Below are positions 30,653 to 56,706 of a DNA stretch of 64,000 nt, one piece after another. The notes beneath the pieces were generated by a model that worked only from the letters and a program-made list of their open reading frames with translations, ran no database searches and was not told the DNA's origin. The DNA comes from Amphiscolops sp. MND2022 (taxonomy: Eukaryota). A program made the position numbers and the translations under genes. Each line of letters begins with the position of its first letter. Position 1 is the stretch's first letter. The stretch spans positions 11,782,001 through 11,846,000 of the forward strand of contig OZ076409.1 in NCBI GenBank assembly GCA_964187785.1, read 5' to 3'.

Positions 30653-31617
30653 TTAGGATATTTCTAGCACGGTGGTATCGATAGTTGAGAATTGCGAAGT
30701 AGCCCCTGAAGTGGTAATGGTTTCGGAAGGGGCATTACTACTGTCCACTTCTACTTGTATGATACAGGTAGAGCAGCTATTGTTAATGGAGGCATCGATT
30801 CCGCTTCCATCAGCATTGAGCGAACCCGTATTCCCATCTATTTTTTCACTAGAGTGTAAATCTTTCGAAATAATGACATCAGTTGGAACCGCTGATTGTT
30901 GTTCTGCCAGAGCACTGGCACTTCTTCTCTCGTAAGCGGCAGCTCCAATGCTTCTCAACGTCGAGCTCTGTTCCAATGCAGTTTGTAGCGACTGAAGAAG
31001 GAAGCCATTGACTAGAATTTGAGGTGAAACAAGAATGGAGACTTTTTCGGTGCCATTGGTGAGAATGAACTCGGCTTCAACGACAGCGTCTGAAGACTGG
31101 TCTGTGATTCCTGGAATTGTGATCGCTGAGTCATAGTTTGAAAGAGCGTTTGGGTCTCCGCCAACTACAGAAGCACAAACATGATCAGATGTACAAGTCA
31201 ACACAATCGTAGGTACGGGTCCATTGCCAATTGTTGATGCTGCTGGAATAACTGCCTGAGGGTCCGATTCTAAGGTCCGGGGTTCGTTGCTAACCAAGGT
31301 CTCTTCACTGTTTGTTCCTATTAGAGATTGGTTGAAACAGGAGCTCAGCTCTTCCATCATGTTCTCGATTTCAACCTGGTCTAATTTATGCGTTGCACGG
31401 AGATGCTGTCTCAGAGCCGCTTTACTGGCCAGTCTGCGATTGCATAGAGAACACAGCACTGAGTTAGCAGAGAGGTCCGCAATGGTATCTGCAGCGCTGC
31501 CCGGGACATCGTTCAGCGACATAACGGATTCCACGTGAGTTCGGGTCACGTGATCTTTAAGCTGCTGCTTCAATCTGAACTGTTGTCCGCACTGCGTGCA
31601 AATATAGGGTCTTTCAC
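30653..31617 (-). CDS. CTCF: CTCF last exon: ZF10, ZF11 and a long Ser/Thr-rich C-terminus
   Basis: ORF 30653-31624; phase 1 acceptor gives HTG-ERPY; stop at 30653. Confidence 0.9.
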
Positions 31618-34600
31618 CTAGCAAAAAGAAATATAGAAAACTTCGGTGTCATTGCGCGGGAGACTGTTTTCACCAGAGTTTTGACACTGCTAATCAGCGA
31701 TTTAGTGAATTGAGGCGATTATATTAGAGATTCAAATCAGCTGTAACTAATAGATTTTCCAAATTCGAAACTTTCTCGGAAAATACAAGGAGTTTCAAAA
31801 TGAATTTCAAAAAAATGCCAACTCTTCATCCGTAAAACTCACACACTAAAATTCCTTTCTTGCAAAAATTGAATTGAGTTATCAGCTGGGGTGTGGGAGT
31901 TTCAGACCGTGGACCGAAACCCGTAGTGCCAAACCGTAACCCGTAGTTGTGAAAAATACGAACCGTGCACCTTTCTGAGAGATCCGAGCGAATTGTTTAT
32001 TACATTTAACAGCAGTGTTTCTAAGAACAAGCCGGGAACGGCCCAAGTCGGCGCCATATCTAAGGCTCAAAAATAGCAAAAGGACTTCAAAGTGTTAAAG
32101 TATTCTCTTCTAAAGCACCCCAAAAACCCAAAAGTTGGACCGGATTGGCGCGCCAGGTGAAAGCTTTGACATTTTTCATCCCTTCTGTGGCAAATCATCA
32201 AAAAATTGAAGGGTGACCCTTTAATAAAAAAATTGAAGTCTCACAATACCGAAAAAAAACTGAGAGGGGGACCTTTTGGTATTTTTCAACATCCATTCTG
32301 CCGCAAAACTCCAGACAAAATGAAGGCAGAACCTTTACGGAAAATTGTTTTGTCTAAAAGAAGTCGCACTATGTCGAAATAATGAAAAAAATTTTACCGA
32401 AAGTTGCATAGTGCCGACAAATGTAAAAGGGGGGACCCCTTGGGATTTTTTGAACGTCCATTCGGTTGCAAAATATCAAAAAATGAAGGGAGGACCCTTT
32501 GGAGACATTAAAAAAGTTTGCGAAAAAAAGTCACAAAGCCGAAATTACACGCACAAAAAATTTGCTCAAGGGTCAGACTCGAACCCACGTCCTTCTGCTT
32601 GGCAGACATCAAAACTATCCTAATTAACCTCTATGCTAAGTGGCAGTAGAAGTTACAAGTGTGGCAGTTAGTGGACGCAGAGGGCGTTCCCTTATTGCCA
32701 TTTTGGGGCAAGGAAGATGAGTGCTTTTGATGAAAAAAAATTTCTGAAGCAAACCTGTTTTTCTGGAACCGTAAACCGTAGATGATAACCCGTAAACCGT
32801 AATTTCAATTCAACCCGCACGGTTCCACACCCCAGGTTATCAGTTATACTCAAAACATTCTTGAATTCAAACAATTTATAGTGGGGAAAAGTTTTTCAGC
32901 AAAACAGCGATTTTGAAATTAATGGTTTAGAGATTAGAAGAAAAATGAGCGATGTCAAAAACTGGTTTTTACAGAGCTACTAGTGTAATCTTTAGACTGC
33001 GCTACGAGATCAGTGGATTGTTCTTCAACCCATACTCCCAAAATATGTAAGCCCTACCTGTATGAGTCATGCGATGAGCTTTAAGGTGTCGTTGCTGTTG
33101 GCACCTGTAATCACACAGATCACATTTCCACACTTTTTCTCCCCGGTGTTTGCGCAGGTGTTCCTTCAGATTGTGTCTGTCTGGGAAAGACACGTTGCAA
33201 TATCTGCACTTCTGGGGTCTCTGACTCGTGTGCATCTTCAACATGTGTTGCTTCAAGTCACTGCGTCGCCCACACGTTGTATCGCAATATTCACACTGAT
33301 ACCTGTGGGAACACGGAGAGAAACAAGTCAACCCTAATTGATCTGCTGGGCCTTTTATTTCCAAATTTTCGAAAGTTCCAATGGTCAATATCTCCTTAAC
33401 TACACATACCAAAGAAATAAACTACAGGCGTGTTTGAAAAGTCCGATACTGGACTCTCATTTTAATTGGATGAGCCCCTGTCACCGCTCGCCGCATCCAT
33501 CAGAATTTTAGTTTCTTTGTGGTATTGCGGAATGGTAAAGGGTTTTCGCCGTAGTTCAAAGACTTTTGAAAACATCGAATTTTGCCAGAAGAAAACTTCA
33601 GAAAAGTATTAACATTTTTTTGCAAGAAAAATCCATTTTTCTCAGCTTCGGAGAATATTTCACTTTCCCTAATGATTGTGCCGTTCAAACCAAACGGAAT
33701 TAAACAGGGTGGCCACGGTGTCAGGGAGAGCAAAAGTGACTGGTCCTTGTCGGGTCGGTCACTTTTGGTCAGGGTTTCACCTAATTTCGTTTTGCTTTTT
33801 TCCGTGTTACGTATTTCAGATGCTATGAGTGGTTGAAAACGCGACAAAATGGACACTTGCAAGTACAATTCCGCTTGGTTGGAAGACGACGGATTCAAGG
33901 AATGGGTGCAGCGGTCGATCGTGTATCAAAAGCTGCAGTCTTGGCAACATGGGTTCCGGGTCCCTCCAGTTGCACCGAAAGAAACTTTACGCATGCGAAG
34001 CTGGTACAGTTGAAGATCCAAACATCTACCGGGGAAGAACATGCAGGCGAACATAGAATCAACTGACGTGCCAACAACAAGCAAGACTGTTATGATTATG
34101 TCCGCTTGTTTTCCCTGGCGGCTGTGGAGTCAAATAAATATGTCATTCCGAGCTGCTGATGTAGCTGGTGGTGTATTCAAGGTGGTGTATTCAATCCCAA
34201 ATAGCAAAATTGCGAAAGGATACTCATGAGGAAAAACGGAAGCAATGAATTTATTGAAGATTGGGCTCAGCGGATATTTTAACGATCAATTGTTGAAATC
34301 CGCCCGTATGACATCTTCGTACGTGATCGAATTCGACGAATCAATGAACCCACAAACCAAAACATGTCAGATGAATTTTCACGTTCGTTTCTGGTACGAT
34401 GGCCAAGTTGGTACTTTTTACTACGGATCGACTTCACTCGAGCCTGCTAGAGCAGATATTTTGAACGAATTGCGCAAATTCTTCGAGGTAATTATCCGTC
34501 TTTAACTTACCTCGCTTTTAACTTGACATGATAAATTTTTTGTTCAGCTCATGACGAACAAGTTGGTACAAATTGGAATGGACGGGCCCAACGTTATTTG

Positions 34601-37600
34601 GTCATTCATGAAGAGCTTAGATCTGAATTACGGGTTAACTCGACAGCACCATTACCAATTGACATCGGTTGGTGGTTCAAGGTGTCGATATGAAAAAGAT
34701 ATAAAAGACAAACAGTCGTCCGATAAGGAAGCCAAAAAGCGCAAAATACAAAAGCGTATTAATGATACAGCAGTAAAAATTCGACGTTCTTGGGCAAGAA
34801 GATGCTGATCTACTACAAATGGCTGACAATAAGGCGACGAATGCCGAGCGCAGAACTGGCCTAAAACTCATGGCTGAGTCCAACTCATTTCACATTTTGC
34901 CAAGAAAAAAGGTGAAGAGGAACGGCAATTGTTGAACTCTATAATGTTACGGCTTTGAAAGTCGCCCGAATGCTGAGTTTCTGTTAATACAATTATTCAT
35001 GAAATATAATCGTTTTCTGGTATGACTTCGTTTTCTTTCGTCCACTGGAGCATCTCTAAAAATATTTAGTGCAAAATCTGCGTTTTTCAGTTACATGGTC
35101 AGGGAGAGCACTTGTGTAATGTCAGGGAGAAAAAATTATTGCGCGTGGCCACCCTGAACAAATTGTTAAATTAAAAATGTACTAACTAGGGATGTACCGG
35201 AATTCCGGCCGGATTTCAAAAAAGTTCCGGTTCCGGCCGGAATCATAATTGGTTCCGGCCGGAACAAAATTCTCTTAAAAACATCATTGTTTCCAAATTG
35301 TTTCATAAATTGATACAATTGACTAAAACAATTTCAGATTATGGTGAAGAAATAAAAGTTTTTCGCCAGTTTCAGGAAGAAGTCTGCTTCTTTTTTCTTC
35401 ATATATGTTTCCGAATTCGCAGAACAGCCTTTGTGAATAAACAGATGACAGAGGTGATGTCAGAAATTTCTTCGCAACTTTTTTCAGAGAACGTAAATGT
35501 AGGATAGCACAATCAAAGTTCCGGTCCGGCCGGAACTGGAAATCGAGTTCCGGTTCCGGCCGGAACTCAAAAACGCATTCCGGTACATCCCTAGTACTAA
35601 CGAATATGGGCTACTGGCAAAACGAATCAGAATTTGAAAAACAGTAAGGTTCTTCAAAATACCGCTAGGTTAAGAGTTAAACAACTAAAAATTGAATTGA
35701 GTATAGCATATCTTCGATATATAAGTCGAAATTATTTTCCAGTAGGGGATGTCGAAAAATCATGACGACAAGTACTGGTTTTCATTTGCAACTTGTGAAC
35801 TGAGTTTGTTTCACTGACCCATTCTTTCGTGACAACCTCCCTTTATAGTGGTATAAAATCAAGCTTTTCTGATCTTGAAATTGACAATCGGCCACTGATT
35901 AGAACCGCGAATGAATGAAATTTTGGCCAACTTTCTTAAAATTTGATTGATTGAGAGCAACATAGCTGACACAAATAAAACAATGCACCAATTGATGCGC
36001 TTTTGCCTTAAATGGCCCAAGGTTCGAAACCCGGGTGAGTTGATTTCATGATCAAACTATTTTGAAAGATTTTCAGACCGTGGATATTCATGACAGTAAA
36101 ATAATACATTACTGCGTCTTGCTATTGATTTTCAGTTGATTTCAGCGCTTTGAATTAATCTGATGCAGAAATTAGGTATATAAAACCGGCTTTGAATCTA
36201 ATGACAAGCCTTGTAATGCAAAAAAGTTGTCTTAGCCTAAACCTACATTTCTCACAAGTTTAACCTTTTCATATATAGCCACATTGAATTTTTCACTGAC
36301 CTCGGTTTGTCCCCAGTATGACCCAGCAGGTGTTGTCTCATGGATCCCGCTTGAGTGAACCTCGCTTTACAAACTGGACACTCGTAAGGCTTCTCACCAG
36401 TGTGTGTCTTCAAATGACGCTTCAATTTGAAGTTATCTGCACAGCAGTAACTGCACAGATGACACCGAAAAGGACGATCACCTAAAAAACAAACCACAAT
36501 TCGAAAGTTATACTATAATTTAGGCGAGGATATTTTTGTGCCAACTGCAACAGTCCATTTTTTGGGAAACAAACATTTTAACATCGAAAAAACGAGGTCA
36601 AGGTCATTTATTCATGAATAAAACACAAAAAAAACAATTAAAAAGCACTTTTTCCTGTTTTTTTAGACACTTTACAGTTATTTATGGTCTAGTTTCTGAC
36701 TGTTCAATTTGTTTGGTAGTTTCCACCTTTTCCAGATCGAAATGCATCGTGTGAAAGATGATATCTGCAAAAAAGCAATGTGGCGAATGACTTCCATGCT
36801 TTATAATCATGTTACACTTTTGTAGAAGAAAATTTGGCAATAAATGAAAAGGCGTCGGGCATAACACACTGTTTTCCATGGTAGCTTTCCCAAGCGAAAA
36901 AAATAAACTACAAAAATAAAAATTTCAAAAAAAACTTGTTTAAAACACTTTTCGTGAAAAAACATATAAAAATAACAACTCTGTAAAAAAGATGTTTGCC
37001 AACAAAGATTGTTAATTATAGTTTTTTGACGAAAAATGTTTTACACAGGTTTTAAACGACATATAGTGTTTTTTGTACTTTATTGTTTTTTTTCCGTTTG
37101 GGAAAAACTACCGTGGAATTCATGAATGAAACACCTTAACTGTGATATCATGTGGATATCATGACCTTCAAAACTATGAACCTAGACAGAGAGCATATTA
37201 TTGTTGTCAAACATAAAACTCTAATTACTGTCAATTTGAGTTTACTACATATAGTGTTGTACAATAGAGTATTGACCATTGAACATGAGATTGATACTAT
37301 AGATTAGTTGCTAAAGAAGATACGAATTTATCGTCTTAGATAAAGAACCTTTTTATCGTGATAGACCGAGGTTACAACATGGCGCAGTAGCAAGATTTAC
37401 TTTTATCCGTAAATCCAATTTTAACCGACCAAATACCAATGACGACAACCAAGAGTAATATATTGCTACCATACCTTGAAGACACCGGACTTGATGGGAA
37501 AAAATTATACACCCCCAAAGAATGGACCGAACGATTACGGCATTACATAAAACGAATCCATGATATCGATATAAAACCGGCTTTATCCGGGGAAACAATG

Positions 37601-40600
37601 CCAACAAGTAACGAATGGACAACAAAAGAACCGGAAATAAGACAAGATTTCATCTGGGGAGCAGGACCATCGGCAATAGAGACGATCACCAAAGGAGAAT
37701 TCAACACAGATCCCGATACCATCAATACAGAAAGACTCATCCAACTATTCAAAGACTATTACATGCCAAAACGAAACACCTACCACAGCCGAGGAGATTT
37801 CTTCTGGGCGAAACAAGAAGACAACGAAACCCCGGAAGAACACTGGCGAAAATTAGTATCCCTCGAAAAGAACTGCGAATTCAAAGATATCAAACAAGAA
37901 GACCTACTAATATCAAAATTTATCACTAGTATTACCGATAAAAAACTACGGGAAAAACTCATCCGCGAAAAAACACTGAATCTGAAAACTACCATGGATC
38001 TGGTAACCCAAGATAGTTATGAAAAGAGACATAAGCAATCAACAATACCACCAGCACTGGCGAAAGAAAAAGAAATTAAAGAAGAACCCATACAGAAGAT
38101 ACAACCACGAAACTACCGGAAAAATACCGAAACAACCGCAAAAAACAACAACTGCGGTTTCTGCGGACAGCAAAACTGGTCACCATCACACAAATGCCCG
38201 GCAAAAACGGCAGAATGTAATAATTGCCACAAAATGGGACACTTCGCAAGAGTTTGCCGCAGCAAAACCAATAAGAACACGAGAAAGCAAAAAATCAACT
38301 ACCTGGAAGAAACATACACCGAAGAAGAAGAAAGTGAACCAGAAGAAATACAACAAATCACGCAAATCAATAGAGTACTACCGGATGAAAACGATAACTA
38401 CGGGATCAAACTAAAAATTAACGGCAAATACCAAAATTTCACAATTGACACCGGCTCTCCAGTTACAATAATGCCAAACAACCCAGAACTCTACAACCAA
38501 AGAGATATAAAACCCCTGAAAGAAAGATATCAAGACGTAAACAAAAACGAAATCCAATTCCTCGGGAAAATATGGGCCGATATCGAACACAACGGAAAGA
38601 CAACAAAATTACCAATCCTAATTACAAAAAGAAACGATATCACTCCATTATTAGGCGTGAACTGGTTGAAACAATTACCAATCACCATCAACAAAATTCA
38701 ATTGGACGAACCAACCAACCAATCAGAAACCATCTACGCGAAATTCAACAAACTATTCGAAACAAACCATACAATTAAAAATATAGAAGTGAAAATTCAA
38801 ATAAAGCCAGGATGCTACCCCATCCAGCAGAAAGCCAGACCAATACCGTACCATTTACAAAAAGACGTAAAAAACGAACTGGACCGATTAATAAAATCCG
38901 GACATCTCGAACGATTAGAAACAATCGAAGAAGATTGTTTTGTATCACCCGTTGTAATTACGGTGAAGAAAGACAAGACGGTAAAAATCGCGCTAGACGC
39001 CCGAAAACTCAATGACAGCTGCGTAAAGAAAAGGCCACACATGCCAAATATGGAAGAACTATTAAATCAAATATCAGCCGAATTATCCAAAAACGACCGC
39101 GACCCAATTTGGATATCCGTAGTAGACCTCGACTACGCATACGGACAAATGAAACTGGCCCCCGAAACAAGCAAACACTGCAACTTTGCAATGACAGGAG
39201 AGAAAATAAATGGATATTACCGATTCTTAAAAGGATTCTACGGCCCCGCCGACATACCAACGATTTTCCAAGAAAAAATAGACAGAACCCTGGGTCACCA
39301 AACACCAGTTTGGCTAGATGACATTATAATTGTCACACGTGGAACCAAAGAAGAACATACCCGAAAACTATATTCGGTACTGACAAAACTGGAAAATGAA
39401 GGCTACAAAGCAAGCAAAAAGAAGTCAAAATTCTATCAAAAAGAAACAATATGGCTCGGACATACGATATCACAAGACGGAATCAGGCCAAACAAAGAAA
39501 AGACAGATGCGATAAATAAACTAGAACCACCAACAAACGCCAAAGCACTAAAATCTTTCCTCGGAGCTATACAGTACTTTGCGAAATTCATACCGAATTT
39601 ATCCGAGAAAACAGACAACATGAGACAACTACTCAAAAAAGGGACGAAATGGGAATGGACAACCGATCGAAATTCGGACTTCAACAAAATAAAACAAGAA
39701 CTAACATCATTACCCTGTTTGGCACACTACAACGGCAACAAAGAAAACATCGTCACAACCGACGCATGCAAAACTGGTTTGGGAATAGCACTCTGGCAAA
39801 AACAAGGCAACGGAGAACTAAAACCGATAGCATTTGCCAGCCGATACCTAAACGATGCCGAAAAAAAATATTCTATCGGAGAATTAGAACTATTAGCCGT
39901 CGTATGGGGCTTGGAAAGATTTAGATTCCATTTATATGGCAAACAAGTCCAATTATTCTCGGACCATCAAGCACTAGAACCCCTCCTGAAGAGAAACAAG
40001 ACAAATAAACAATATAGTGCGCGACTAACACGATGGCTAGACAGATTGAACCACTTCGACATCTGCTTAAAACACACTGCCGGCAAAGAAATCAAATTCA
40101 CGGATTTCATCAGCCGAAATCCCACCGAAAATCCAGAACCGGAAGAAAATTACGAAGAAGAATTTGTTATTAACGCCATCGCGCAACTAGCAACGGTAAA
40201 CGCCCGAATAGGACGGATTTTCGACCAATCAGAAGACGCGACCACGGCAGCCAAAGCAAACATGCGTGATACGCGCTCGCTAATTGACACGCGACGCTAC
40301 CAAACAAACAAAAGCCATATTGATTCTAATTACCGCATACAACAGCATCCATCCAATACTGACTGTATAAAAATGAATAACAATGAAAACAATACACGCT
40401 TCTTCCGCACAGACGGACAATTACGACACCATTGGGGTGCAGATGACGATATCATGGCCATTATCAATGCAAGAGATAAATCACCCGAAACTTCGGAACT
40501 CGTGAGAAGAAGAGTACAATTGGCGAGACCGGGTGTAATGAGACCACATTTCAACAAGAATTTGGGCCGAGAAATTTACATACCGAGAAGACCGGAAGAA

Positions 40601-43600
40601 GATGAAAGAAGAGAAATAAAGCGAATTGACATTCAACTGAGACAAAAGATCAGAGAGCAACATATCGGCGGAGGATATTTTCAAAACTTTGGGGACGACA
40701 TTCCCCAGACCCAAAACACCGAACAACAACAAACCGAGAGAAATGAAACCAACCGAGACACAGAATCCACCGTCTCAAATAACTCGGAGGAAGCAGTAGC
40801 CACCCACGAACCCGGAACTTACCCAGCAATACCAGTCCAAGAATACAGAGACGGGCCAATCGAAGAAATTGCCGTACACTACGTGAGAATCAACCGCGTA
40901 GTTGAAGAAAAACCGAAGCGTAACAGACAACAAGAAGATAACGTCAGATCGGCAGAACTAGATTTCATGCTAGACTTGGAAACGATAATCAAGGAGACGG
41001 CCGCTGACCCTGATCTCATCGAACTAAACTGCTGCATCGAGGACAACAAATTGGATCAAATTCCGCAGAACTACAAAACCGTAGCCAAGAAACTGACATA
41101 CCGTTGGGGTATTATATTGGTCGACGACCGCATCGTAATTCCAAAATCACTACGCTACGCAGCACTCAATGCATTACATTTTGGACATCCCGGGATAAAC
41201 AAAATGTACAGCGACGCAGCAATATTCTGGTGGCCGAACATGCGGGAAGATATTGAAAAGAAATCAAAAACCTGCTCAGCCTGCCTCAACGCTGGTAAGA
41301 ATCTAAAATTCCAAATACCCCAAACCGAAAAATCAAAAATCGAACCGACAAAAACACCTGGTGAAGAAATACAAATTGATTTTACGGGAAATCTCAACAA
41401 TAAAAAACTGCAAAGCAATCCGTTCACACTAATTGCGGTGGATAAAAATAGCCGATGGCCCGTAGCAAAAATATGCAAAAATACGAACCATGAAACCGTC
41501 ATTTCATTTCTGGATGAATACATAAATGTATACGGAGTACCGAAACAAATAAAGTCGGACAAAGGCGGCGCCTTTATCTCCAAAGAATACATAGAATATT
41601 GCAAGACGCATAATATCAACCGCATATACGGTACGGCAAACCTACATACTGGCACCGGATTGGTCGAGCGTACAATCCAATCGCTGAAGAACCTAACTCT
41701 GGCAAATCTAGAAGACAACCAAAACCTTCGTGAAAGCGTAAATAGAGCACTATACGTCCTAAGATTTACAATACATTCAGAAATAAAGAAAACTCCGTTT
41801 GAATTACATTTCGGACGGACACCAAGAACCAAACTGTCTAACCTAAAAAATTCTATTTCAGTGGATTCCAAAGATCTCTCGGTGTATATCACCAGAAATT
41901 CAACCGGACAAATCACGGATCACCTGGTAATGTCAAAGAAAAAGATAGCCGAACCAAGATACAAGCGAGGAATGACATTCTCCCAAACAAAAAAAACCGA
42001 CCAGTGCGGTAAGTAAATTTGAATATCCTTTCAAATTTTACGAAAAAAACTACAAAAAAGGATCCATGGAAAGTAAATTCAAAAATAAAATACAAACCGC
42101 TGTATCTGGAACAAGACACACCGTAACAACGGATAAAAATAAAGTTATCCACAGGAAATTAATATCCAACCCGCTACCATTTCAGCAAACAACAACACCG
42201 GCAAAGAAGATCAACACCCGCCAAAACACCGCAGACCAACCCACCTGCTCCAAAACACTGGACAATACAACCACCAGCGGAGCACCCTGCATCTACAGCA
42301 GGAAAGAAACACCGAAGAACACCGCAAACTACGAAAGAAGCGAGGACTGGTCGAAAAGAAAGGAAATACCCAGGAACAACAAGGGACAATTTACTTCACC
42401 AAACAAAAACACAGAAAACCTAAACCTGAGCATCATATCTGACGATGACGACTTCGAATGTTACAATAAAGCGGAAGGAAAACCGATACAAGTCAACATC
42501 GAAGATGAACTTCAGCTCCACCCGAAGGAAACTAACCTGACACCGGAACAAGGTAGCTATAAAAGAAAAAATAGAACAGAAAAACCGATAGAACCGGTCA
42601 GAAGATCCAATAGACTACCTTTTGCAAAACAAACCGAAAAATTAGGCGGGATACCGTACCACATTAGTAACAATAAGAAAAAATTAACTAACCACGGTAA
42701 TTTATTACAGGAAACAACAGCGGAAACAGCGGAGAGAAATGAGACGAAGAATGACCGTCCAATGCGACAAAACAATGAAGAAATCCGTACCATACGGCCA
42801 CTACAACAAATCCCCATCGGACAACCCCGAAGAGGGGGGAATGTGATATCATGTGGATATCATGACCTTCAAAACTATGAACCTAGACAGAGAGCATATT
42901 ATTGTTGTCAAACATAAAACTCTAATTACTGTCAATTTGAGTTTACTACATATAGTGTTGTACAATAGAGTATTGACCATTGAACATGAGATTGATACTA
43001 TAGATTAGTTGCTAAAGAAGATACGAATTTATCGTCTTAGATAAAGAACCTTTTTATCGTGATAGACCGAGATTACAACATTAACAACAACCTTGATGAT
43101 GCTAACCCGTATGCGATCGCATGTGTCTTTTCAACTTGCTGACTTCAACACTTGCGTAATCACACTCCGGACACTGGTGAGGCTTATAAGACGTGTGTCG
43201 GTATCTTTGATGACGTGTCAACTCCCCTTTGGTTACAAACGCTTGGGAGCACTCCTCGCATTCATAAGGCTTGCGCCCTTTGTGAGTGTTCATATGATTG
43301 TTAAGCATAGATTGTAGTTTGAAGGCTTTGTCGCATTGGGGACACTGGAAAACAAAACAAATCAATATAGCCCAATTGGATATTCACCAGCATGCGAACT
43401 TTAACAACCATAGTCGCACGTGCGGTGAAGGTAAATTGAAAAACAAATTACGTACTTATTGTCATTTTTGCACTAAGTTTGACTCTGTCAGATCTGTTAT
43501 ACGATTTTGATGGCATTGTACAAATAGGACCCTAATATGGCGTAGAATGATTGTAAAAATTTCGTTCGAATCGTATGCACAGTTTTTGAGAAAATCAGAA

Positions 43601-44385
43601 AAAGTCCAAAAACGGCTGTTTTTGGCCACATTTTTGGGCTAATTTTGGCTGTTTCTCAGATCCCAACTATACGATTTTGATGTCATTGCGCACGTAGGAG
43701 CACCTTTGTGTGTAGAATGACTGCTGAATTTTATAAAAATGAAGTTTTTGAGAAATTTGAAATTTTCATTGAAAGGTCGGGAGAAAAAAGGTACGAGTGC
43801 ATAATTTTTTCCGACTCCTAAAATGAGTTCTTCATCTAACCTTGAAAGGTCGTTCCTGATAATGACTCTTCCAATGTTTTTCCAATGTCTCCTGCGACAA
43901 GGCGGCGTAGTTACCACAGATGCCACAGTGATATACTCTCGATTGGTTTTCAACCACATGGTCACTGTCAAACTTGATGTGTTTGTAGATATCGAATTTG
44001 GGTCTGGTAGAATCAACGTGATTGGTCAAAGGATCGTCTTCGTTTTCCTCCGCCCTCAAGCTCTGTTCACAACATGTCTCGCCGGCACTATTCGAAACGG
44101 CACTTTTTTTCTTTTCCGAATTCTCGTCTGATATCTCATCCAATTTTCTTTTCGGACTAGGCGTAAGGGTGGCTTCTTGGCTGGCGAGAGCACATGTGTT
44201 CTTTTCATGGAAAGCATCTTCGGTTTTTGGGAAGTGAGATGGACTAATACCCTCCAAGCTATCTTCCCACAAATCGGTGCCCTCGTAGGAAGAAATTATG
44301 CCTTCAGCGGTGAAAGAATAGAACGGTTTCAAATCTCCACGATTGACTGCACTTCTTGAATTGCGCAGAATGTTAGGTCTTTTGC
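30653..44385 (-). CDS. CTCF: CCCTC-binding factor (CTCF) orthologue, 11-zinc-finger and C-terminal exons
   Basis: Exons 44385-43841, 43344-43107, 36481-36301, 33302-33058, 31617-30653 splice in phase. Fingers follow CTCF order with diagnostic strings: [99 protein letters not shown]. Confidence 0.92.
31886..32835. mobile_element. hAT-type MITE nested in MITE 31674-32964 and itself containing a Helentron-like copy (32026-~32680)
   Basis: TIR CTGGGGTGTGG/CCACACCCCAG; 8-bp TSD GTTATCAG. Confidence 0.8.
33058..33302 (-). CDS. CTCF: CTCF exon: ZF7-ZF9
   Basis: ORF 33002-33412 trimmed to splice sites. Confidence 0.93.
33705..35156 (+). mobile_element. Internally deleted DNA transposon with hAT-like transposase remnants
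   Basis: 13-bp TIR CAGGGTGGCCACG; fragments [36 protein letters not shown]. Confidence 0.8.
35187..35593. mobile_element. hAT-type MITE
   Basis: TIR TAGGGATGTACCGGAAT; CCGGCCGGAA subterminal repeats; perfect 8-bp TSD GTACTAAC. Confidence 0.88.
36301..36481 (-). CDS. CTCF: CTCF exon: ZF5-ZF6
   Basis: ORF 36252-36497 trimmed to splice sites. Confidence 0.93.
37141..37379 (+). repeat. 5' LTR
   Basis: Direct repeat of 42842-43080. Confidence 0.97.
37439..42016 (+). CDS. Gag-pol polyprotein (Zn knuckles, protease IDTGS, RT WLDD, RNase H, integrase HHCC/DDE)
   Basis: 1525-aa ORF with recognisable motifs. Confidence 0.95.
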   Translation: MTTTKSNILLPYLEDTGLDGKKLYTPKEWTERLRHYIKRIHDIDIKPALSGETMPTSNEWTTKEPEIRQDFIWGAGPSAIETITKGEFNTDPDTINTERLIQLFKDYYMPKRNTYHSRGDFFWAKQEDNETPEEHWRKLVSLEKNCEFKDIKQEDLLISKFITSITDKKLREKLIREKTLNLKTTMDLVTQDSYEKRHKQSTIPPALAKEKEIKEEPIQKIQPRNYRKNTETTAKNNNCGFCGQQNWSPSHKCPAKTAECNNCHKMGHFARVCRSKTNKNTRKQKINYLEETYTEEEESEPEEIQQITQINRVLPDENDNYGIKLKINGKYQNFTIDTGSPVTIMPNNPELYNQRDIKPLKERYQDVNKNEIQFLGKIWADIEHNGKTTKLPILITKRNDITPLLGVNWLKQLPITINKIQLDEPTNQSETIYAKFNKLFETNHTIKNIEVKIQIKPGCYPIQQKARPIPYHLQKDVKNELDRLIKSGHLERLETIEEDCFVSPVVITVKKDKTVKIALDARKLNDSCVKKRPHMPNMEELLNQISAELSKNDRDPIWISVVDLDYAYGQMKLAPETSKHCNFAMTGEKINGYYRFLKGFYGPADIPTIFQEKIDRTLGHQTPVWLDDIIIVTRGTKEEHTRKLYSVLTKLENEGYKASKKKSKFYQKETIWLGHTISQDGIRPNKEKTDAINKLEPPTNAKALKSFLGAIQYFAKFIPNLSEKTDNMRQLLKKGTKWEWTTDRNSDFNKIKQELTSLPCLAHYNGNKENIVTTDACKTGLGIALWQKQGNGELKPIAFASRYLNDAEKKYSIGELELLAVVWGLERFRFHLYGKQVQLFSDHQALEPLLKRNKTNKQYSARLTRWLDRLNHFDICLKHTAGKEIKFTDFISRNPTENPEPEENYEEEFVINAIAQLATVNARIGRIFDQSEDATTAAKANMRDTRSLIDTRRYQTNKSHIDSNYRIQQHPSNTDCIKMNNNENNTRFFRTDGQLRHHWGADDDIMAIINARDKSPETSELVRRRVQLARPGVMRPHFNKNLGREIYIPRRPEEDERREIKRIDIQLRQKIREQHIGGGYFQNFGDDIPQTQNTEQQQTERNETNRDTESTVSNNSEEAVATHEPGTYPAIPVQEYRDGPIEEIAVHYVRINRVVEEKPKRNRQQEDNVRSAELDFMLDLETIIKETAADPDLIELNCCIEDNKLDQIPQNYKTVAKKLTYRWGIILVDDRIVIPKSLRYAALNALHFGHPGINKMYSDAAIFWWPNMREDIEKKSKTCSACLNAGKNLKFQIPQTEKSKIEPTKTPGEEIQIDFTGNLNNKKLQSNPFTLIAVDKNSRWPVAKICKNTNHETVISFLDEYINVYGVPKQIKSDKGGAFISKEYIEYCKTHNINRIYGTANLHTGTGLVERTIQSLKNLTLANLEDNQNLRESVNRALYVLRFTIHSEIKKTPFELHFGRTPRTKLSNLKNSISVDSKDLSVYITRNSTGQITDHLVMSKKKIAEPRYKRGMTFSQTKKTDQCGK
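42066..42917 (+). CDS. C-terminal continuation of pol in the +1 frame; runs into the 3' LTR
   Basis: Frame is open back to the A8 run at 41989-41996; removing one A fuses it to the polyprotein. Confidence 0.65.
   Translation: MESKFKNKIQTAVSGTRHTVTTDKNKVIHRKLISNPLPFQQTTTPAKKINTRQNTADQPTCSKTLDNTTTSGAPCIYSRKETPKNTANYERSEDWSKRKEIPRNNKGQFTSPNKNTENLNLSIISDDDDFECYNKAEGKPIQVNIEDELQLHPKETNLTPEQGSYKRKNRTEKPIEPVRRSNRLPFAKQTEKLGGIPYHISNNKKKLTNHGNLLQETTAETAERNETKNDRPMRQNNEEIRTIRPLQQIPIGQPRRGGNVISCGYHDLQNYEPRQRAYYCCQT
42842..43080 (+). repeat. 3' LTR
   Basis: Direct repeat of 37141-37379. Confidence 0.97.
43107..43344 (-). CDS. CTCF: CTCF exon: ZF2-ZF4
   Basis: ORF 43102-43365; [12 protein letters not shown] matches recalled CTCF ZF4. 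Confidence 0.95.
43841..44385 (-). CDS. CTCF: CTCF exon: acidic linker plus atypical ZF1 (CGIC-x13-HWKSH)
   Basis: ORF 43832-44332 extended to the acceptor at 44386; ends ERPFK|GTTAG. Confidence 0.85.
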
Positions 44386-46859
44386 CTGAATGAAAAGAAT
44401 TCCTTAAAAGGGAGAAAAAAACAAACTTTTCAAAGAATATAGCTTTTTCTTCGTTTCGAAAACAACTGTCTCATGTTACAGTCACGGTATCTAATCAAAA
44501 AAGACTAAACAATAGGGCTACTAGAGAATAATTGAGATTTAATTGCTGCAATACAACCGTTATTCGAAATACGGCGATCCCGAAACGCAGATCGAACTAT
44601 GTATACAAACCGCATACATTAGTTATTCCCAAAGGGATATTCTTTGATCTCGTCTAGATTCTCAAATTTTGCGTTTTCCACACTTAGCAAATGTTTCAGT
44701 CCTGATTTTTTGCTGAGATCATGTAGCGATGCAAAGGTTTGAGCCATGCGTAGGCGGAAAGCACTTGACGACAACAACAATAGAAAGGACTGCCTTTTTT
44801 CCTTTCTAATGCGCCTCACGATGAAATGTGCCTCAACAACACACCAGTGTGGCGTGCAGCTGACACTAATGCAACGAAAAATTTGAATACAGCGTCCGGA
44901 GAACCAGGAACCCTGTTATACCTAGAAACTGTTTTGAGGTTAACCAGGAATATGGAAAGTGCTTCAAGGTGATTTGTTTGTGCTCGACTTTGACAATAGC
45001 ACGTGAACACGACCAGCTGTAACTTTGAGACTGTTTGCGATCAGGTGAAAACTTTTGTTTCATCCAATTACAAAAACTTATCAATTTGTATGACTGGCCA
45101 CATTGTTATTGATGTTACATTTATTTCTACATGAAAACTAAATTGCTTGCGCAACTGAGAAAAAAACTGAAAAAGTCTGACTCAAAAAAGACAGAATGAC
45201 AAAAATACCAAGACTCAGCAAGCAATTGCTACACTTAATTTATTCTTGTAGCCCTATTCTCTTTTCTTTCACCTAATCTTCAGGACGTATGTCAAACGAC
45301 TTTTTAAAAATACTTCGAAAGAATTATTCGTTACTTCCTATTGGGTTATCAGCAAATGGAATTTAACTATAAAGAATTGATTTGAAAATTACCATGCCTC
45401 AATTTCGACCAAAAATTTCCTTGTAAATACAATTGTAAGTTCGAGACTGCTTAAAAAGATAGAGATCGAGATTTGCAGACTTCAACCCCAGAACATCTTT
45501 TTTAAAAGTTATTACCTTTCGGAGCGTTTTCTTTGGGTTATCATTTATCAAATCTTTCAAACATTGCTTATCTGGCAGAACTAAAATTTATTTTTATTTC
45601 AGATGAAGCCCTCTTCAAGCAACCCCGTCGTGGGCTCTATTCAAGCTTTTCTGTCGATAAAATTAGTCAAAAATTAAGATGAAATAGCCGCCACAACGAA
45701 AAAAAAATTACGAACAGTTGATTCAATCAACACTGGTCACAGAGGGCTACACAAATTTTACCGTTAAGGTTTCGTTAAAGCGCCTTGTGACATGTGAACT
45801 TCGTCAGAGCGGATGTTAACAGACAATGTAATGTCAAATTGGTCGCTTATTGATTTTTTCACATTGTTTTGATTTCAAAACCAGCCTTGCAGCTGTTCAA
45901 CAACTTTAAAGCGGGCCTTCTAAAAGACCAAAACCTTGAATTCGAAAAAAAACTAAAGCCCAAATCAGAAATCCACTGTTCCGGGACACAATCAAGAAGC
46001 ACCAAAACCAGTATAGAAACAGAAGTTGCACTATGCACCCTTGCAATAGGAAATGACAATTTTTCTTTGGTTTTTCTAGTTAATGTTAAAACTCTTGTCA
46101 TTCTGTGGTCGAATCAAAATTCGCTTTATTCATTTCTTATTCCACAGAATATTGTAGCAATCGATGGATTTCCACATTTTCAAAAAAGGGTTTTCCAAAA
46201 TGTTTAAGGAACATTCAATAATCAATCCTATCAGTTTTGTTTTCAAAATTTCAATGGTTCTAAACGCAGTGTTGCGTTTAAAGATGGTTTATCGGAAAAT
46301 CACTTGATACCTATGTGAAAATCTTAGTTAGAAATTTCAATATAGAACAGTTGCTAAAAATTTCTAATTCCTGCTGTTAACTAGATAAAATGGTTTTTAA
46401 AACTTAAGCAACTGTTCTTCCTTGAAATTAGAGTAAAGATTTTCATTGTATTTTACTTTAGTTATTTCCACTATATTAACTGAACAGCCTATTTACCTGA
46501 ATCATTGATTGTCAACATTACCTCAACACCCAGCCGATTGTGGATTCCTGATACTTTTTTGCTCTAACAATGAGTGGCATAATTTTAAAAAATAGTACAT
46601 TGATTCATTTGTTCTGTTCTAGCATATTTTTAGAAATTACCGCTACTGTTAGAGCATGGAAGAAGATACATGCCAATGCAAACACCTTGGTAATTGAAGC
46701 AGTCTCGAACTTCCAGAACGTGTATAAATTGTTTGAAAGCGTGCTATTTCTAGTGGAAAAACAGCTTACCTAACACAATAAAGAAATATCGGCCGTTCCT
46801 CATTTAAAAAAAAATTAAACCTAAAACATTAGGGAGAATTTCCTTCGAAGAAAATGCGA

Positions 46860-47383
46860 TTTTTAGTCGGCGCTTTTCGAAGAAAAACGCAGACTATAGT
46901 AGTGACTTTTTTAAGACCAACTAACTGAAAGATTTTATAAATTTTATAAGTGAGCACTAACACTGCTGTCTGGCACTAACATTGTCTGGCACTAACACTA
47001 AACCACACTGGCATAGAGGTTACGGCTTTTTGAGGTCTGCCAAGCGGAAGGACATGGGTTCGAGTCCCGCCCTTGACCAAATTTTTTTTGTGTAGATTTT
47101 TTTCGGCTTTGTGAGACTTTTTTTCGCATTTTTTTTAAATGTCTCCGAAGGGTCCACCCTTCATTTTTTTTCCTATTTTGCAAAAGAATGGATGTTGAAA
47201 ACAGCCAAAGGGCCCCTTTTACATTTTTCGGTACAATGCGACTTACCAGAAACTTCAAAAAAATTCAAAAAAAATTGGAAAATTTTTTTGGGTACTGTAG
47301 AGGAGAGTACTTGACAATTTGAAGTCCTTTTGCTATTTTTGAGCCTTAGATAGGGCGCCGACTTGGGCCGTTCCCGGCTTGTT
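46860..47383 (+). mobile_element. Helentron/DINE-like copy (duplicated at 50207-50704)
   Basis: TTTTTAGTCGGCGC...GGCGCCGACTTGGGCCGTTCCCGGCTTGTT termini. Confidence 0.7.
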
Positions 47384-47901
47384 CAACAGTTACAGTGGGT
47401 TTTGTCTCTGAATTAATTTACGTATGGAAAATTATCCTATCTTCTATAGAAGTTTCCAAAATTATTATATCATGCGACTTTTTTATTTCAGTTACGTACA
47501 TCTTCAAACAAGCTTGTGGCACACTTTTACTATACAAGTAATTTTTTTCTACAGTATTATACAAGAGAATTGACATTAAACTCAATCTTCTTTTCATGCA
47601 GCTTTTGTAAGACTAAATTATTCCGAACGTTAATCTGTGAACGAAAAACGATCGGAAGGATAAAAAGCATTCCCAGTGCCGATGGTAAATGTCGAAGGTT
47701 TCTACTTAGTTGTCTCTAGACTGACTGTGTCTCATACTCTTTTTCGAGATTCAATAAAGTCCTCTAATTGTAACATCTCAAATTTACAATAAAAAGCTAT
47801 TGTATTATTATCGGTAAAGTTTTGGGACTAGAGAAAATTGAGTTTGGTGCACAACAAAACTGTTTCAACACCAACAACTACTGAAATATACATCTGCCAG
47901 C

Positions 47902-47991
47902 CTAACAAAACTGTTTTCCTATGTAAGGTTATTATATATAAATTCTAAAATTTATATATAATAACCTTACATAGGAAAACAGTTTTGTTAG
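47902..47991. repeat. Perfect palindrome, 43-bp arms with 4-nt loop (copy at 51223-51312)
   Basis: Arms are exact reverse complements around CTAA. Confidence 0.95.
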
Positions 47992-48798
47992 TCTTTCAAT
48001 ACATGGACCGATGCGCAGCAGCTTCACCGTTTGAAGCAGTTAAATAAAGTTTCAACTCAATTTACAATTTGAGTAAGTTCCATGGGCAGTTTTGTGAAAC
48101 GAAATATAAAATCACCCACTGACATTTGTAAGTTTTAATCAAATTCTCAAACTAATCGACAACACAAAATAAACACAAACGCCCACCGTCCGTAGGCATG
48201 CCTTTCGACGACGTATGCCAAAAACCGCATACCACGCAGTCATTTCCGCTAGATTCTCAAATTTTGCGATGTTTTTCCCACACTTAGCAAATGTTTAAGT
48301 CCTGATTTTTACTGAGATCATGTAGCGATGCGAAGGTTTGAGTCATGCGTAGGCGGGTGTCTGGATTTAAACGTGGAAGTTCACCGTAGAAAAATATGGA
48401 GCTATCAAAAAACTTACGGTAAAAGCCGTTCAAAGTTACAGCAAAAAGTCAAACAACATAAACGCTTAGCTGAGAAACTTGCAATAGTGCCTGCATATGT
48501 GAAATCTGGTGGCGCCATTTTTTTCCTGGAAAGCTAAACATGACATCCGAATTTCTCGAGTTTCCACGAGTTCTGAGCAATATCAAAACCTTCAAGGTAC
48601 GTAGTCATGGTAATGATTTATGAATTTTCCAATTGTCGAAAATTCTCCAAAAAGTTTCAGGTGTTTTGGTACGACAGTCTTTCTTCTACAACAGCACCTA
48701 ACACCGAATCAACTTTCAGGTTAACGTTCGAGCGGAACAACCATAAAGGCACAAAATAGCTGTTTTCGTTCACGGGAAGCCCATATATTAAAACTTAC

Positions 48799-49521
48799 TA
48801 ATATTAAAGTGTGAAAACCACTGAACATCAGAGTCCTCGTCAAGAGAGCTTTTATTCTCGTTCGCTGTTAGACAAGAACCAGTGAGGCCAGACAAAATCG
48901 AGGAACCAAATTGACTAGATTTGGAGCATGTTGCAACCTGCGCAGATCCAGGCTCCGGTTTTAGCGAAACTTCATCGGGAAAATCGTAAACAGAGTCATC
49001 CGAACACCTGTTTCTTTCTTTGAATTTGTCAATTTTAGTATGACTGAATTTATTCGCTGTACTATTCTCATCCTGAAACCACAACGAGGTTGCAAAAATT
49101 TACATATAGTACAGAAATATGAGATTTGATGAGAATCAATACTAACCGATAAAGCTTTAATAGAGAAGGTAGAGCTGGTATTAGAGTCACCACTGACAGG
49201 AATAAGTTGAACTTTGTGACCCAAATGATCCAATAGTACAACCTTTTCACCAGTGATTGTTCTGAAGGTTCCATCACTTTCCCGGATTAACTGAACTTGG
49301 TTTCTGCTTCCATCGAACTGTTGTTTACTATTATTGGTCTCGGAATAGAATGTATCAACTGAGCTGGTGTTGGCAATAAAATCGTTTTCATCTTGGCTTT
49401 CCACAATTTTGATATCTTTCTGTAGTCGTTCATACACTTTTTCGAAACTTGTTTCAGCGAAAGAAAAATTGACTTCGGGAAACCCCTTAGGCGAAATTGG
49501 ACCTTTCGACAGAGAATACAT
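48799..49521 (-). CDS. CTCF: Probable CTCF N-terminal exons, proximal copy (49521-49147 and 49072-48799), containing SVYDF
   Basis: Overlapping ORFs 48961-49521 and 48788-49084 join through a 74-nt GTTAGT..TTTCAG intron; the phase 1 GTAAGT donor is compatible with acceptor 44385. Further small intervening exons are possible. Confidence 0.6.
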
Positions 49522-52119
49522 GCTTTGAGCTGGATATAGGAAGCCTTATATTTCCGCAAATAGCTCTGCACAAAAAGCCTCACATTTGTCTGAAAAAAAA
49601 CGAACGTGAAGTGGAGGCGCATCTGCATTACAATATTTTCCGCAAAATTTTACGGACACCTTTAGAAAGCAATAAAGCAATCGATAGTCCGAAACATCAA
49701 CCAACTGTTGAGAAAGGATATCGACTCATCAACTAGAATTTATCATGGATCTACGTCATTTACCTTACAATCAGAACTGGATCGTATTTTACTTTAGTTA
49801 TTTCCACTATATTAACTGAACAGCCTATTTACCTGAATCATTGATTGTCAACATTACCTCAACACCCAGCCGATTGTGGATTCCTGATACTTTTTTGCTC
49901 TAACAATGAGTGGCATAATTTTAAAAAATAGTACATTGATTCATTTGTTCCGTTCTAGCATATTTTTAGAAATTACCGCATATTTTAGAAATTTCTGTTA
50001 GAGCATGGAAGATACATGCCAATGCAAACACCTTGGTAATTGAAGCAGTCTCGAACTTCCAGAACGTGTATAAATTGTTTGAAAGCGTGCTATTTCTAGT
50101 GGAAAAACAGCTTATCTAACACGTTAAAGAAATATCGGACGTTCCCCATTTTAAAAAAAATTTAAACCTAAAACATTAGGGAGAATTTCCTTCGAAGAAA
50201 ATGCGATTTTTAGTCGGCGCTTTTCGAAGAAAAACGCAGACTATAGTAGTGACTTTTTTCAAGACCAACTAACTGACAGATTTTATAAATTTTATAAGTG
50301 AGCACTAACACTGCTGTCTGGCACTAACACTAAACCACACTGGCATAGAGGTTACGGCTTTTTGAGGTCTGCCAAGCGGAAGGACATGGGTTCGAGTCCC
50401 GCCCTTGACCAATTTTTTTTTGTGTAGATTTCTTTCGGCTTTGTGAGACTTTTTTTCGCAATTTTTTTAATGTCTCCGAAGGGTCCACCCTTCATTTTTT
50501 TCCTATTTTGCAAAAGAATGGATGTTGAAAACAGCCAAAGGGCCCCTTTTACATTTTTCGGTACAACGCGACTTACCAGAAACTTCAAAAAAAATTTGGA
50601 AAATTTTTTTGGGTACTGTAGAGGAGAGTACTTGACAATTTGAAGTCCTTTTGCTATTTTTGAGCCTTAGATAGGGCGCCGACTTGGGCCGTTCCCGGCT
50701 TGTTCAACAGTTACAGTGGGTTTTGTCTCTGAATTAATTTACGTATGGAAAATTATCCTATCTTCTATAGAAGTTTCCAAAATTATTATATCATGCGACT
50801 TTTTTATTTCAGTTACGTACATCTTCAAACAAGCTTGTGGCACACTTTTACTATACAAGTAATTTTTTTCTACAGTATTATACAAGAGAATTGACATTAA
50901 ACTCAATCTTCTTTTCATGCAGCTTTTGTAAGACTAAATTATTCCGAACGTTAATCTGTGAACGAAAAACGATCGGAAGGATAAAAAGCATTCCCAGTGC
51001 CGATGGTAAATGTCGAAGGTTTCTACTTAGTTGTCTCTAGACTGACTGTGTCTCATACTCTTTTTCGAGATTCAATAAAGTCCTCTAATTGTAACATCTC
51101 AAATTTACAATAAAAAGCTATTGTATTATTATCGGTAAAGTTTTGGGACTAGAGAAAATTGAGTTTGGTGCACAACAAAACTGTTTCAACACCAACAACT
51201 ACTGAAATATACATCTGCCAGCCTAACAAAACTGTTTTCCTATGTAAGGTTATTATATATAAATTCTAAAATTTATATATAATAACCTTACATAGGAAAA
51301 CAGTTTTGTTAGTCTTTCAATACATGGACCGATGCGCAGCAGCTTCACCGTTTGAAGCAGTTAAATAAAGTTTCAACTCAATTTACAATTTGAGTAAGTT
51401 CCATGGGCAGTTTTGTGAAACGAAATATAAAATCACCCACTGACATTTGTAAGTTTTAATCAAATTCTCAAACTAATCGACAACACAAAATAAACACAAA
51501 CGCCCACCGTCCGTAGGCATGCCTTTCGACGACGTATGCCAAAAACCGCATACCACGCAGTCATTTCCGCTAGATTCTCAAATTTTGCGATGTTTTTCCC
51601 ACACTTAGCAAATGTTTAAGTCCTGATTTTTACTGAGATCATGTAGCGATGCAAAGGTTTGAGTCATGCGTAGGCGGGTGTCTGGATTTAAACGTGGAAG
51701 TTTACCGTAGAAAAATATGGAGATGTCAAAAAAACTTACGGTAAAAGCCGTTCAAATTTACAGCAAAAAGTCAAACAACATAAACGCTTAGCTGAGAAAC
51801 TTGCAATAGTGCTTGCATATGTGAAATCTGGTGGCGCCATTTTTTTCCTGGAAAGCTAAACATGACATCCGAATTTCTCGAGTTTCCACGAGTTCTGAGC
51901 AATATCAAAACCTTCAAGATACGTAGTCATGGTAATGATTTATGAATTTTCCAATTGTCGAAAATTCTCCAAAAAGTTTCAGGTGTTTTGGTACGACAGT
52001 CTTTCTTCTACAACAGCACTTAACACCGAATCAACTTTCAGGTTAACGTTCGAGCGGAACAACCATAAAGGCACAAAATAGCTGTTTCGTTCACGGGAAG
52101 CCCATATATTAGAACTTAC

Positions 52120-52842
52120 TAATATTAGAGTGTGAAAACCACTGAACATCTGAGTCCTCGTCAAGAGAGCTTTCATTCTCGTTCGCTGTTAGACAAGAAC
52201 CAGTGAGGCCAGACAAAATCGAGGAACCAAATTGACTAGATTTGGAGCATGTTGCAACCTGCGCAGATCCAGGCTCCGGTTTTAGCGAAACTTCATCGGG
52301 AAAATCGTAAACAGAGCCATCCGAACACCTGTTTCTTTCTTTGAATTTGTCAATTTTAGTATGACTGAATTCATTCGCTGTACTATTCTCATCCTGAAAC
52401 CACAACGAGGTTGCAAAAATTTACATATAGTACAGAAATATGAGATTTGATGAGAATCAATACTAACCGATAAAGCTTTAATAGAGAAGGTAGAGCTGGT
52501 ATTAGAGTCACCACTGACAGGAATAAGTTGAACTTTGTGACCCAAATGATCCAATAGTACAACCTTTTCACCAGTGATTGTTCTGAAGGTTCCATCACTT
52601 TCCCGGATTAACTGAACTTGGTTTCTGCTTCCATCGAACTGTTGTTTACTATTATTGGTCTCGGAATAGAATGTATCAACTGAGCTGGTGTTGGCAATAA
52701 AATCGTTTTCATCTTGGCTTTCCACAATTTTGATATCTTTCTGTAGTCGTTCATACACTTTTTCGAAACTTGTTTCAGCGAAAGAAAAATTGACTTCGGG
52801 AAACCCCTTAGGCGAAATTGGACCTTTCGACAGAGAATACAT
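52120..52842 (-). CDS. Duplicate of the probable CTCF N-terminal exons, distal copy (52842-52468 and 52393-52120)
   Basis: Near-identical to 48799-49521; intact frame and splice sites; 4 amino-acid differences in the second exon. Confidence 0.5.
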
Positions 52843-53080
52843 GCTTTGAGCTGGATATAGGAAGCCTTATTTTTCCGCAAAGAGCACTGCACAAAAAGCC
52901 TCACATTTGTCTGAAAAAAAACGAACATGAACAGGAGGCGCATCTGCATTACAATATTTTCCGCATACTTTTACGGACACCTTTAGAAAGCAATAAAGCA
53001 ATCGATAGTCCCAAACATCAACCAACTGTTTAGAAAAGATATCGACTCATCAACTAGAATTTATCATGGATCTACGTCAT

Positions 53081-56000: not shown

Positions 56001-56706
56001 GTCTACGTCAAAACCGCCCACGATTTAATTTCTAGCTTGGATGACAAACGTTCGAAAGTTTTTAACGCTCATCAAGGCAGATTCGGGTCTCAATGGCTGA
56101 ACTTCGTTTCTTGCAAGAACTTAGGCCTGAAACTTGATGAACAACAGTTTCGAATTTCAATTGGTTCATGTCTCGGAGCCAACATACGTGTAGCGCATAC
56201 ATGCCACTGTGATAAAAAAGTTGAACGGGACGGTTTACATGGTCTTTTTTGCACCAAGTGCGCTGGTTGCTTCTCACGTCATGCTACTCTCAATTCTCTA
56301 ATAAAGAGACGTTTGGATCTTTCGACTTGCCTTCAATGCTTGAGCTGCGTGGGCTGTACCAAACTGATGGCAAACGCCCAGACGGTGTTACCATGATTGC
56401 TTGGGAAAAACAGCTGGTGTGGGATGTCACGGTTGTGGATGCTCTTGATGCCAGTCGCCTGAATCAAGGCTCTTTATCAACACGGGAACCACCGCCACAG
56501 AAGCTGAAGCGCGTAAAGTTGACAAATATCACAAATTATTAGACAATGGATACATTTTTCAACCGGTAGCCTTGGAAGTACAGGGTTCTAGGCGAGAGCA
56601 GTGAAAATTTCATCACGCGTCTCTGTAAAATGCTCTGTCGTTCGCACGACGATCAATGAGCTGACAGTTTTTTGAAGCAACGGATTTCAATGGCTCTTCA
56701 GATTGG
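53081..56706 (+). mobile_element. Decayed CRE-like (RLE-type) non-LTR retrotransposon
   Basis: RT blocks (FFGAKLIALK, EGTQQGD, NLWYLD, GGLGV), CCHC-like CHC..GLHGL.C and endonuclease RHA.LN / KRPDG / WDVTVVD; many frameshifts. Confidence 0.85.
53787..54574. mobile_element. Foldback/MULE-like non-autonomous element inserted in the CRE-like element
   Basis: Perfect 9-bp TSD TTTTTCAAC; GG..CC ends; GGTCTAA/GATCGAA arrays; shared GC-rich core at ~54258-54430. Confidence 0.8.

Follow-up and report, generated by a model that had tools for sequence, protein, structure and literature searches.

Organisation of the Locus

The window, a stretch of 64,000 nucleotides from the acoel Amphiscolops sp., carries on its minus strand a gene for CTCF, with a retrotransposon in one intron and a second, upstream copy of its first two exons (Table 1). 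Seven exons bounded by GT-AG introns yield a CTCF model of 940 amino acids with 11 zinc fingers (ZF1 to ZF11) and a single terminal stop; its joins connect open frames between plausible splice sites and were deduced from the sequence. Exons of CFAP61 neighbour CTCF on the minus strand (positions 251-21125), and were among those used for the training of splice-site scores. One CFAP61 exon shares 71% identity with Symsagittifera roscoffensis, and none of the other 118 relatives listed exceeds 62%; by this one gene, the source is very likely another acoel.

The pentapeptide SVYDF, reported in an earlier note as a cohesin-docking motif in unannotated upstream exons of CTCF, is read directly on the minus strand (48994-48980). 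The list of open reading frames of the window contains 49545-48961 and 49099-48788, and the intron of 74 nt across which these frames had been said to join was located at 49146-49073, with GT-AG borders and in phase 0. The donor of exon 2 at 48798 (GTAAGT, phase 1) is in frame with the TTCAG acceptor preceding 44385, and the direct join suggested in the same note keeps the 940-residue model open; the splice from 48799 to 44385 and the expression of the model are predictions from the DNA. A strong acceptor before 49589, together with an in-frame stop, leaves a predicted 5´ UTR of about 68 nt before the ATG of exon 1 copy A.

On the minus strand, intron 1 (49146-49073) contains no stops in the frame of exon 1, so its retention would give a product of 186 amino acids that stops at 48961 and lacks both SVYDF and the fingers. 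A second Y-x-F, FYSF, is found at residues 238-241 of the model (window 44385-44300, minus strand), 131 amino acids before ZF1 and without acidic flanks, and an F-x-F is also present at residue 19. Both are probably due to chance.

Table 1. Features of the CTCF locus, in window coordinates.
Feature	Position	Strand	Details
Exon 1 copy A	49147..49521	-	ATG; KVYER residues 28-32; arthropod-like residues 75-91
Exon 2 copy A, bears SVYDF	48799..49072	-	phase 0 in, phase 1 out
SVYDF copy A, YxF-type, predicted STAG-RAD21 docking motif	48980..48994	-	sole match of the HMM built from orthologue N-termini
Exon 3	43841..44385	-	most of the long spacer, SPKRK basic cluster, degenerate ZF1
Exon 4	43107..43344	-	ZF2-ZF4; 58-66% identity to named CTCFs
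Exon 5	36301..36481	-	ZF5-ZF6
Exon 6	33058..33302	-	ZF7-ZF9
Exon 7	30653..31617	-	ZF10-ZF11, C-terminal region, stop
Exon 1 copy B	52468..52842	-	identical to copy A
Exon 2 copy B	52120..52393	-	SVYDF (52315-52301), both splice sites kept
Tandem repeat unit A	46445..49759		holds exons 1-2 copy A; 3331 columns, 97.4% identity to unit B
Tandem repeat unit B	49781..53080		97.4% identity to unit A
Gypsy-type LTR retrotransposon, CTCF intron 4	37141..43081	+ (opposite to CTCF)	LTRs 37141-37380, 42842-43081

Identity of the Gene and Its Zinc Fingers

The naming of the gene as CTCF in the earlier note is borne out by the identity of exon 4 to named CTCFs, the alignment of the fingers and a tree. A protein search with exon 4 (ZF2-ZF4) gave 253 matches among 257 candidates, with the CTCF ZF4 signature in 113 of the 120 matches listed, and the exon aligns to residues 296-374 of human CTCF (7W1M, chain H). 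The 11 fingers pair one to one, in CTCF order, with those of five orthologues. The ZF4 recognition helix, EVSKLKR, is the same as in vertebrates, and those of ZF3, ZF5, ZF6 and ZF7 are close. ZF1 (43927-43862, minus strand) is degenerate, with 13 residues between its second Cys and its first His, one of them extra, and its helix, SQETLEK, is unlike that of vertebrate (RRSNLDR) or protostome CTCF.

In a tree of 23 rows, the model is grouped with 15 CTCFs against seven other poly-zinc-finger proteins at 97/95 support. Its placement outside the protostome and vertebrate CTCF groups in the same tree is weakly supported (86/78), and its branch is long (0.93). In a search of representative proteins with ZF2-ZF4, dominated by long poly-zinc-finger proteins, the CTCF ZF4 signature was present in none of the 150 matches listed.

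Probable Assignment of Exons 1 and 2 to CTCF

In the N-terminal part of the model, Met occurs only at residues 1, 411 and 416, and only residue 1 precedes ZF2. Because the frame of exon 3 lacks Met altogether, the gene must have a coding exon further upstream. It is very probable that exons 1 and 2 belong to CTCF, as the earlier note held, since they are the best 5´ coding candidates by HMM rank, donors and acceptor type.

Two HMMs were built, one from 112 orthologue N-termini and one from 13 sequences. The larger matches the model solely at the SVYDF stretch. With both, the exon 2 reading frame ranks first among the 1634 stop-to-stop frames of the window, at low scores (E 1.2 with the 112-sequence HMM and 0.15 with the 13-sequence HMM), and its counterpart in copy B ranks fifth and second. 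The splice-site model was trained on 11 introns fixed by homology and used to rank 321 GT and 332 AG sites. By the intronic part of the donor, exon 1 comes first and exon 2 seventh of the 321, and the exon 2 acceptor is fifth of the 332. The full score of the donor at 48798 is modest (61st of 321), and the acceptor at 44385 ranks 50th of 332. A competing AG before 44402 outscores the latter and requires phase 2; among the training acceptors, the TTCAG type of 44385 is the commonest (5 of 11), while the AAG type of 44402 is found in none of the 11.

Codon scores of exons 1 and 2 are highest in the modelled frame, yet lie close to zero or just below it (totals -3.4 and -7.2, respectively); exon 3 has a total of +31.4 and scores above the 99th percentile of the intron null. 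Within intron 2, six further exon candidates were rejected, having poor codon totals or being short. Pfam gave no match above cut-off for exons 1-3, and Atlas family searches gave nothing usable for exons 1 or 2. When exon 2 was compared with longer proteins, none of 50 candidates matched. In metagenome scans, none of 245 pattern matches was a hit for exon 2, and none of the 33 loci recovered with ZF2-ZF4 carried the CTCF signature or an SVYDF-type motif. No acoel CTCF came up in these protein and metagenome searches. A single-sequence fold of exon 1 was uninformative (mean pLDDT 38.5).

The description of the N-terminus as otherwise unalignable is right nearly throughout, but one stretch of 17 amino acids in exon 1 (residues 75-91) resembles an N-terminal segment of arthropod CTCF, with weak support. 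A hand-picked arthropod profile places this stretch at the top of 51522 windows; a mixed profile places it at rank 16, and it is absent with a vertebrate profile. In the unbiased test, an arthropod HMM on exon 1 is matched by 62 of 2000 shuffles and a vertebrate HMM by 1272 of 2000, and two of nine pairwise comparisons lie at or below 20 of 500 shuffles. The stretch is offset from YDF by 70 amino acids, compared with 53-84 for the common values in orthologues. The likeness may be taken as a weak lead.

The SVYDF Motif and Its Distance from the Fingers

The frequency of the motif by chance was estimated from 150 order-4 Markov simulations of the window. For exact SVYDF they predict 0.047 occurrences per 64 kb over six frames, or 0.0036 per 10 kb on a single strand; the two exact matches observed come from the two units of the tandem repeat. 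Bare YDF occurs often (13 times versus 8.0 expected), so the signal resides in the flanks. The context is DDSVYDFPDE, with S/T-V before the core and acidic residues around it, much like the crustacean DDTVYDFNE. A search of the PDB with a 30-aa peptide holding the motif gave no CTCF chain, its three hits being chance matches to tRNA ligase. In human CTCF, the YxF motif comprises Y226 and F228 and binds STAG1/2-RAD21. Judged by its residues, SVYDF is most likely the orthologue of this cohesin-binding motif, and by analogy it is likely to dock cohesin.

In the model, the Tyr of SVYDF (residue 154) and the first Cys of ZF1 (residue 370) are 216 amino acids apart; the earlier estimate was about 210, against about 40 in human, and the vertebrate values are 42-43. 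Spacing was surveyed in 113 listed proteins bearing the signature, mostly vertebrate, of which 112 had a located ZF1 and 101 a Y[DE]F before it. The distance from Tyr to ZF1 is 38-43 amino acids in 98 of these 101; one protein has 53, and two seemingly mis-predicted models have 99 and 168. The worm spacer is about five times the usual length, an outlier within this sample only, since just nine of the 101 motif-bearing proteins come from invertebrates, all arthropod.

Y[DE]F is missing in 11 of the 112 listed CTCF-like proteins, comprising nine cartilaginous-fish paralogues (P0155, P0160, P0163, P0166-P0168, P0170, P0175 and P0269), one mussel model (P0158) and one spider model (P0176). Two of the cartilaginous-fish proteins have CDYR or CDCR in place of SVYDF. 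The worm spacer contains 23 K/R and 37 D/E. Its last 17 residues before ZF1 hold three K/R and three D/E, and the lysine-rich patch is absent, compared with eight K/R and no D/E in all four canonical vertebrate CTCFs shown and four to five K/R and no D/E in the seven crustacean and horseshoe crab proteins shown.

The KVYER Motif

KVYER had been seen as a weak echo of the N-terminal KTYQR motif. K.Y.R stands at residue 28 in the worm and at 23 in a rodent protein, and the pattern is rarer by chance than had been assumed: it arises within the first 50 amino acids in 127 of 50000 shuffles (0.25%, a post hoc figure) and anywhere in 955 of 50000. Against the likeness, position 2 is Val in the worm and Thr in 38 of the 38 K.Y.R matches in listed orthologues, one of which reads KTYER, and K.Y.R is found in none of the 13 non-gnathostome CTCFs checked. 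KTYQR is reported to recruit PDS5A and to be dispensable for folding (PMC7645679), and is described as mostly gnathostome (10.64898/2026.10.19.760054, 10.64898/2026.10.19.759930). KVYER can be regarded as a lead, its pattern having been chosen post hoc.

Tandem Repeat and Mobile Elements

The 3.3-kb duplication of exons 1 and 2 was absent from the earlier note. About 21 nt, occurring once in the window, separate units A and B, and there is no N gap. The units differ by five substitutions and no indels in 649 nt of coding sequence, and by 35 substitutions and 10 indels in 2666 nt of non-coding sequence. The exon 2 copies show four nonsynonymous differences and one synonymous difference, with no sign of purifying selection at n = 5, and SVYDF and all splice sites are kept in both. 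The differences are unevenly spread: a stretch of about 1 kb (48331-47275) is free of them, as are exon 1 and intron 1. Such a pattern could be produced either by a real duplication with gene conversion or by an assembly artefact. Likewise, a substitution divergence of about 1% could reflect a recent duplication or haplotypes assembled in tandem; as a matter of judgement, the balance leans somewhat towards a real duplication.

Exon 2 of copy B can be joined in frame to exon 1 of copy A through an AG before 49529, which would place YDF at residues 154 and 373. This AG is weak (3.8) beside its competitor before 49589 (14.4), and splicing to the latter runs into a stop. If the duplication is real, an isoform with two SVYDF motifs can be predicted. 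Upstream of copy B, neither a promoter nor a non-coding first exon was located within the window. The region directly upstream (53009-63486) consists of nested, decayed reverse-transcriptase elements in inverted and direct copies.

The gypsy-type element in intron 4 is young, its LTRs differing at one of 240 bases. It contains an ORF of 1541 amino acids, with protease, reverse transcriptase, RNase H and integrase domains, and an overlapping ORF of 313 amino acids. The element starts some 25 bases in from the donor end of the intron and could affect CTCF splicing.

A Proposed Loose Cohesin Tether and Its Alternatives

It is proposed that the locus encodes an acoel CTCF whose true 5´ exons are exons 1 and 2 and whose YxF motif is inherited, serving as a loose cohesin tether and not as a polar loop anchor. 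This reading is considered probable, and it builds on the sequence, open frame, orthology, motif rarity and spacing described above. ZF3-ZF7 would bind a CTCF-type DNA site, as extrapolated from the vertebrate protein, with the disordered N-terminus extending away from the DNA-bound fingers. The Tyr and Phe of SVYDF could then occupy the STAG-RAD21 pocket, and this contact may recruit or hold cohesin at CTCF sites. Some 175 extra residues would have accumulated between SVYDF and ZF1, with the basic patch lost and ZF1 drifted. Given these three features, the contact would probably tether cohesin loosely, as in other invertebrates; both the binding and the absence of polar blocking are argued from analogy.

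YDF is reported to bind STAG-RAD21 and to be required for polar arrest, to which the basic linker and ZF1 contribute (10.1101/2022.09.15.508177, PMC7645679), and it has been proposed from human cryo-EM that the short basic linker limits the reach of YDF and thus sets polarity (10.1101/2022.09.15.508177). YxF is reported to persist in all the bilaterians sampled, even where CTCF loops are lacking, and invertebrate CTCF orthologues are reported to fail to restore loops (10.64898/2026.10.19.760054, 10.64898/2026.10.19.759930); Drosophila CTCF carries YEF (as cited in 10.64898/2026.10.19.760054). The conclusion of the earlier note that the loop-anchoring interface is kept finds no support in that form. 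Loop anchoring is unlikely, given that YxF is reported in bilaterians without CTCF loops and that the worm protein lacks the basic patch and has a degenerate ZF1.

The same gene model could nevertheless be read as a vertebrate-like loop anchor, in which SVYDF would contact STAG-RAD21, KVYER would contact PDS5 and the SPKRK/KKK cluster of the spacer would replace the basic patch, both N-terminal motifs being ancestral or convergent. The pentapeptide is the same as in vertebrates, and the position of K.Y.R, its rarity in shuffles and the KTYER of one orthologue all speak for this reading. It is judged unlikely, however, since the pattern was chosen post hoc, Val stands where every listed match has Thr, the non-gnathostome CTCFs checked lack K.Y.R, no basic patch adjoins ZF1, and the available reports describe KTYQR as gnathostome-restricted and dispensable for loops and invertebrate orthologues as unable to rescue them. 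A related proposal, that the acoel CTCF joins SVYDF (for STAG-RAD21) and KVYER (for PDS5) on a five-fold longer tether, possibly with a double-SVYDF isoform, is doubtful. If it were true, the two-motif N-terminus would either be older than the jawed vertebrates or have two separate origins, and the spacer would offer a natural way of testing if polarity is set by the geometry from YxF to ZF1.

Other alternatives question the 5´ exons themselves. Exons 1 and 2 could belong to another transcript or be non-coding, with SVYDF arising by chance and a CTCF without YxF starting from a small exon in 44386-48798 or beyond the window. Short combinations of an ATG and a phase-1 GT do occur in the intron, YxF is missing from some listed CTCF-like proteins, and the low codon scores and the unmatched exon 2 would fit; but this explanation is quite improbable, needing motif, strand and position to coincide by a 1-in-270 chance along with compatible phases and good donors, and exon 1 to resemble arthropod CTCF, weakly and independently, at a fitting offset, and no Pfam or Atlas family accounts for the exons otherwise. 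It is highly unlikely that exons and motif are real CTCF parts joined by other splice sites, with an unremarkable spacer of about 40-60 amino acids. Although 32 of 164 in-frame direct joins give 80 amino acids or fewer, and the best of them uses a donor at 48937 whose full score ranks 12th of 321, every such join relies on a donor whose intronic part scores no more than 2.9 or on an acceptor below -8, and the part of exon 3 that would be skipped has the highest codon score tested (0.189 versus -0.021 for the 99th-percentile null).

Significance

The YxF motif and its persistence in invertebrates are already known, and its retention in invertebrates without CTCF loops has been termed an 'enigma' (10.64898/2026.10.19.760054). 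New here are a CTCF probably from an acoel, its long spacer and the doubling of its first exons. Literature searches, whose coverage left out most subscription papers, found no paper on acoel CTCF, and the CTCF passages of PMC7535936, PMC8851819 and PMC9680502 are silent on it. The alignment in 10.64898/2026.10.19.760054 covers eight taxa, and acoels and xenacoelomorphs are absent from the main texts of that paper and of 10.64898/2026.10.19.759930.

The worm motif is a modest variant of a known one; the acoel CTCF overturns nothing and depends on a predicted splice. It would extend YxF to a deep bilaterian branch of debated position, and its 216-residue acidic spacer would be a ready natural chimera for testing the proposal that the linker sets polarity.

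Comparison with Known CTCF Proteins

The worm protein shares with vertebrate CTCF (7W1M) the identical SVYDF, its acidic flanks and its position N-terminal to an array of 11 fingers. However, the vertebrate motif lies 42-43 amino acids from ZF1, a finger with the helix RRSNLDR and a lysine-rich patch beside it, whereas in the worm the distance is 216, the patch is absent and the helix is SQETLEK with one additional residue in the finger. The gnathostome KTYQR (PMC7645679) and KVYER share K-x-Y-x-R near the N-terminus, at residue 23 versus 28, but differ in Thr versus Val at position 2. In crustaceans (DDTVYDFNE) and the horseshoe crab (SVYDFNE), the core motif is embedded in a diverged N-terminus, as in the worm; these proteins also share with it a reduced basic patch and the weak likeness of 17 amino acids upstream. 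Unlike the worm, arthropod CTCFs have a well-conserved ZF1 and a spacing of 38-53 in nine of the nine motif-bearing proteins listed.
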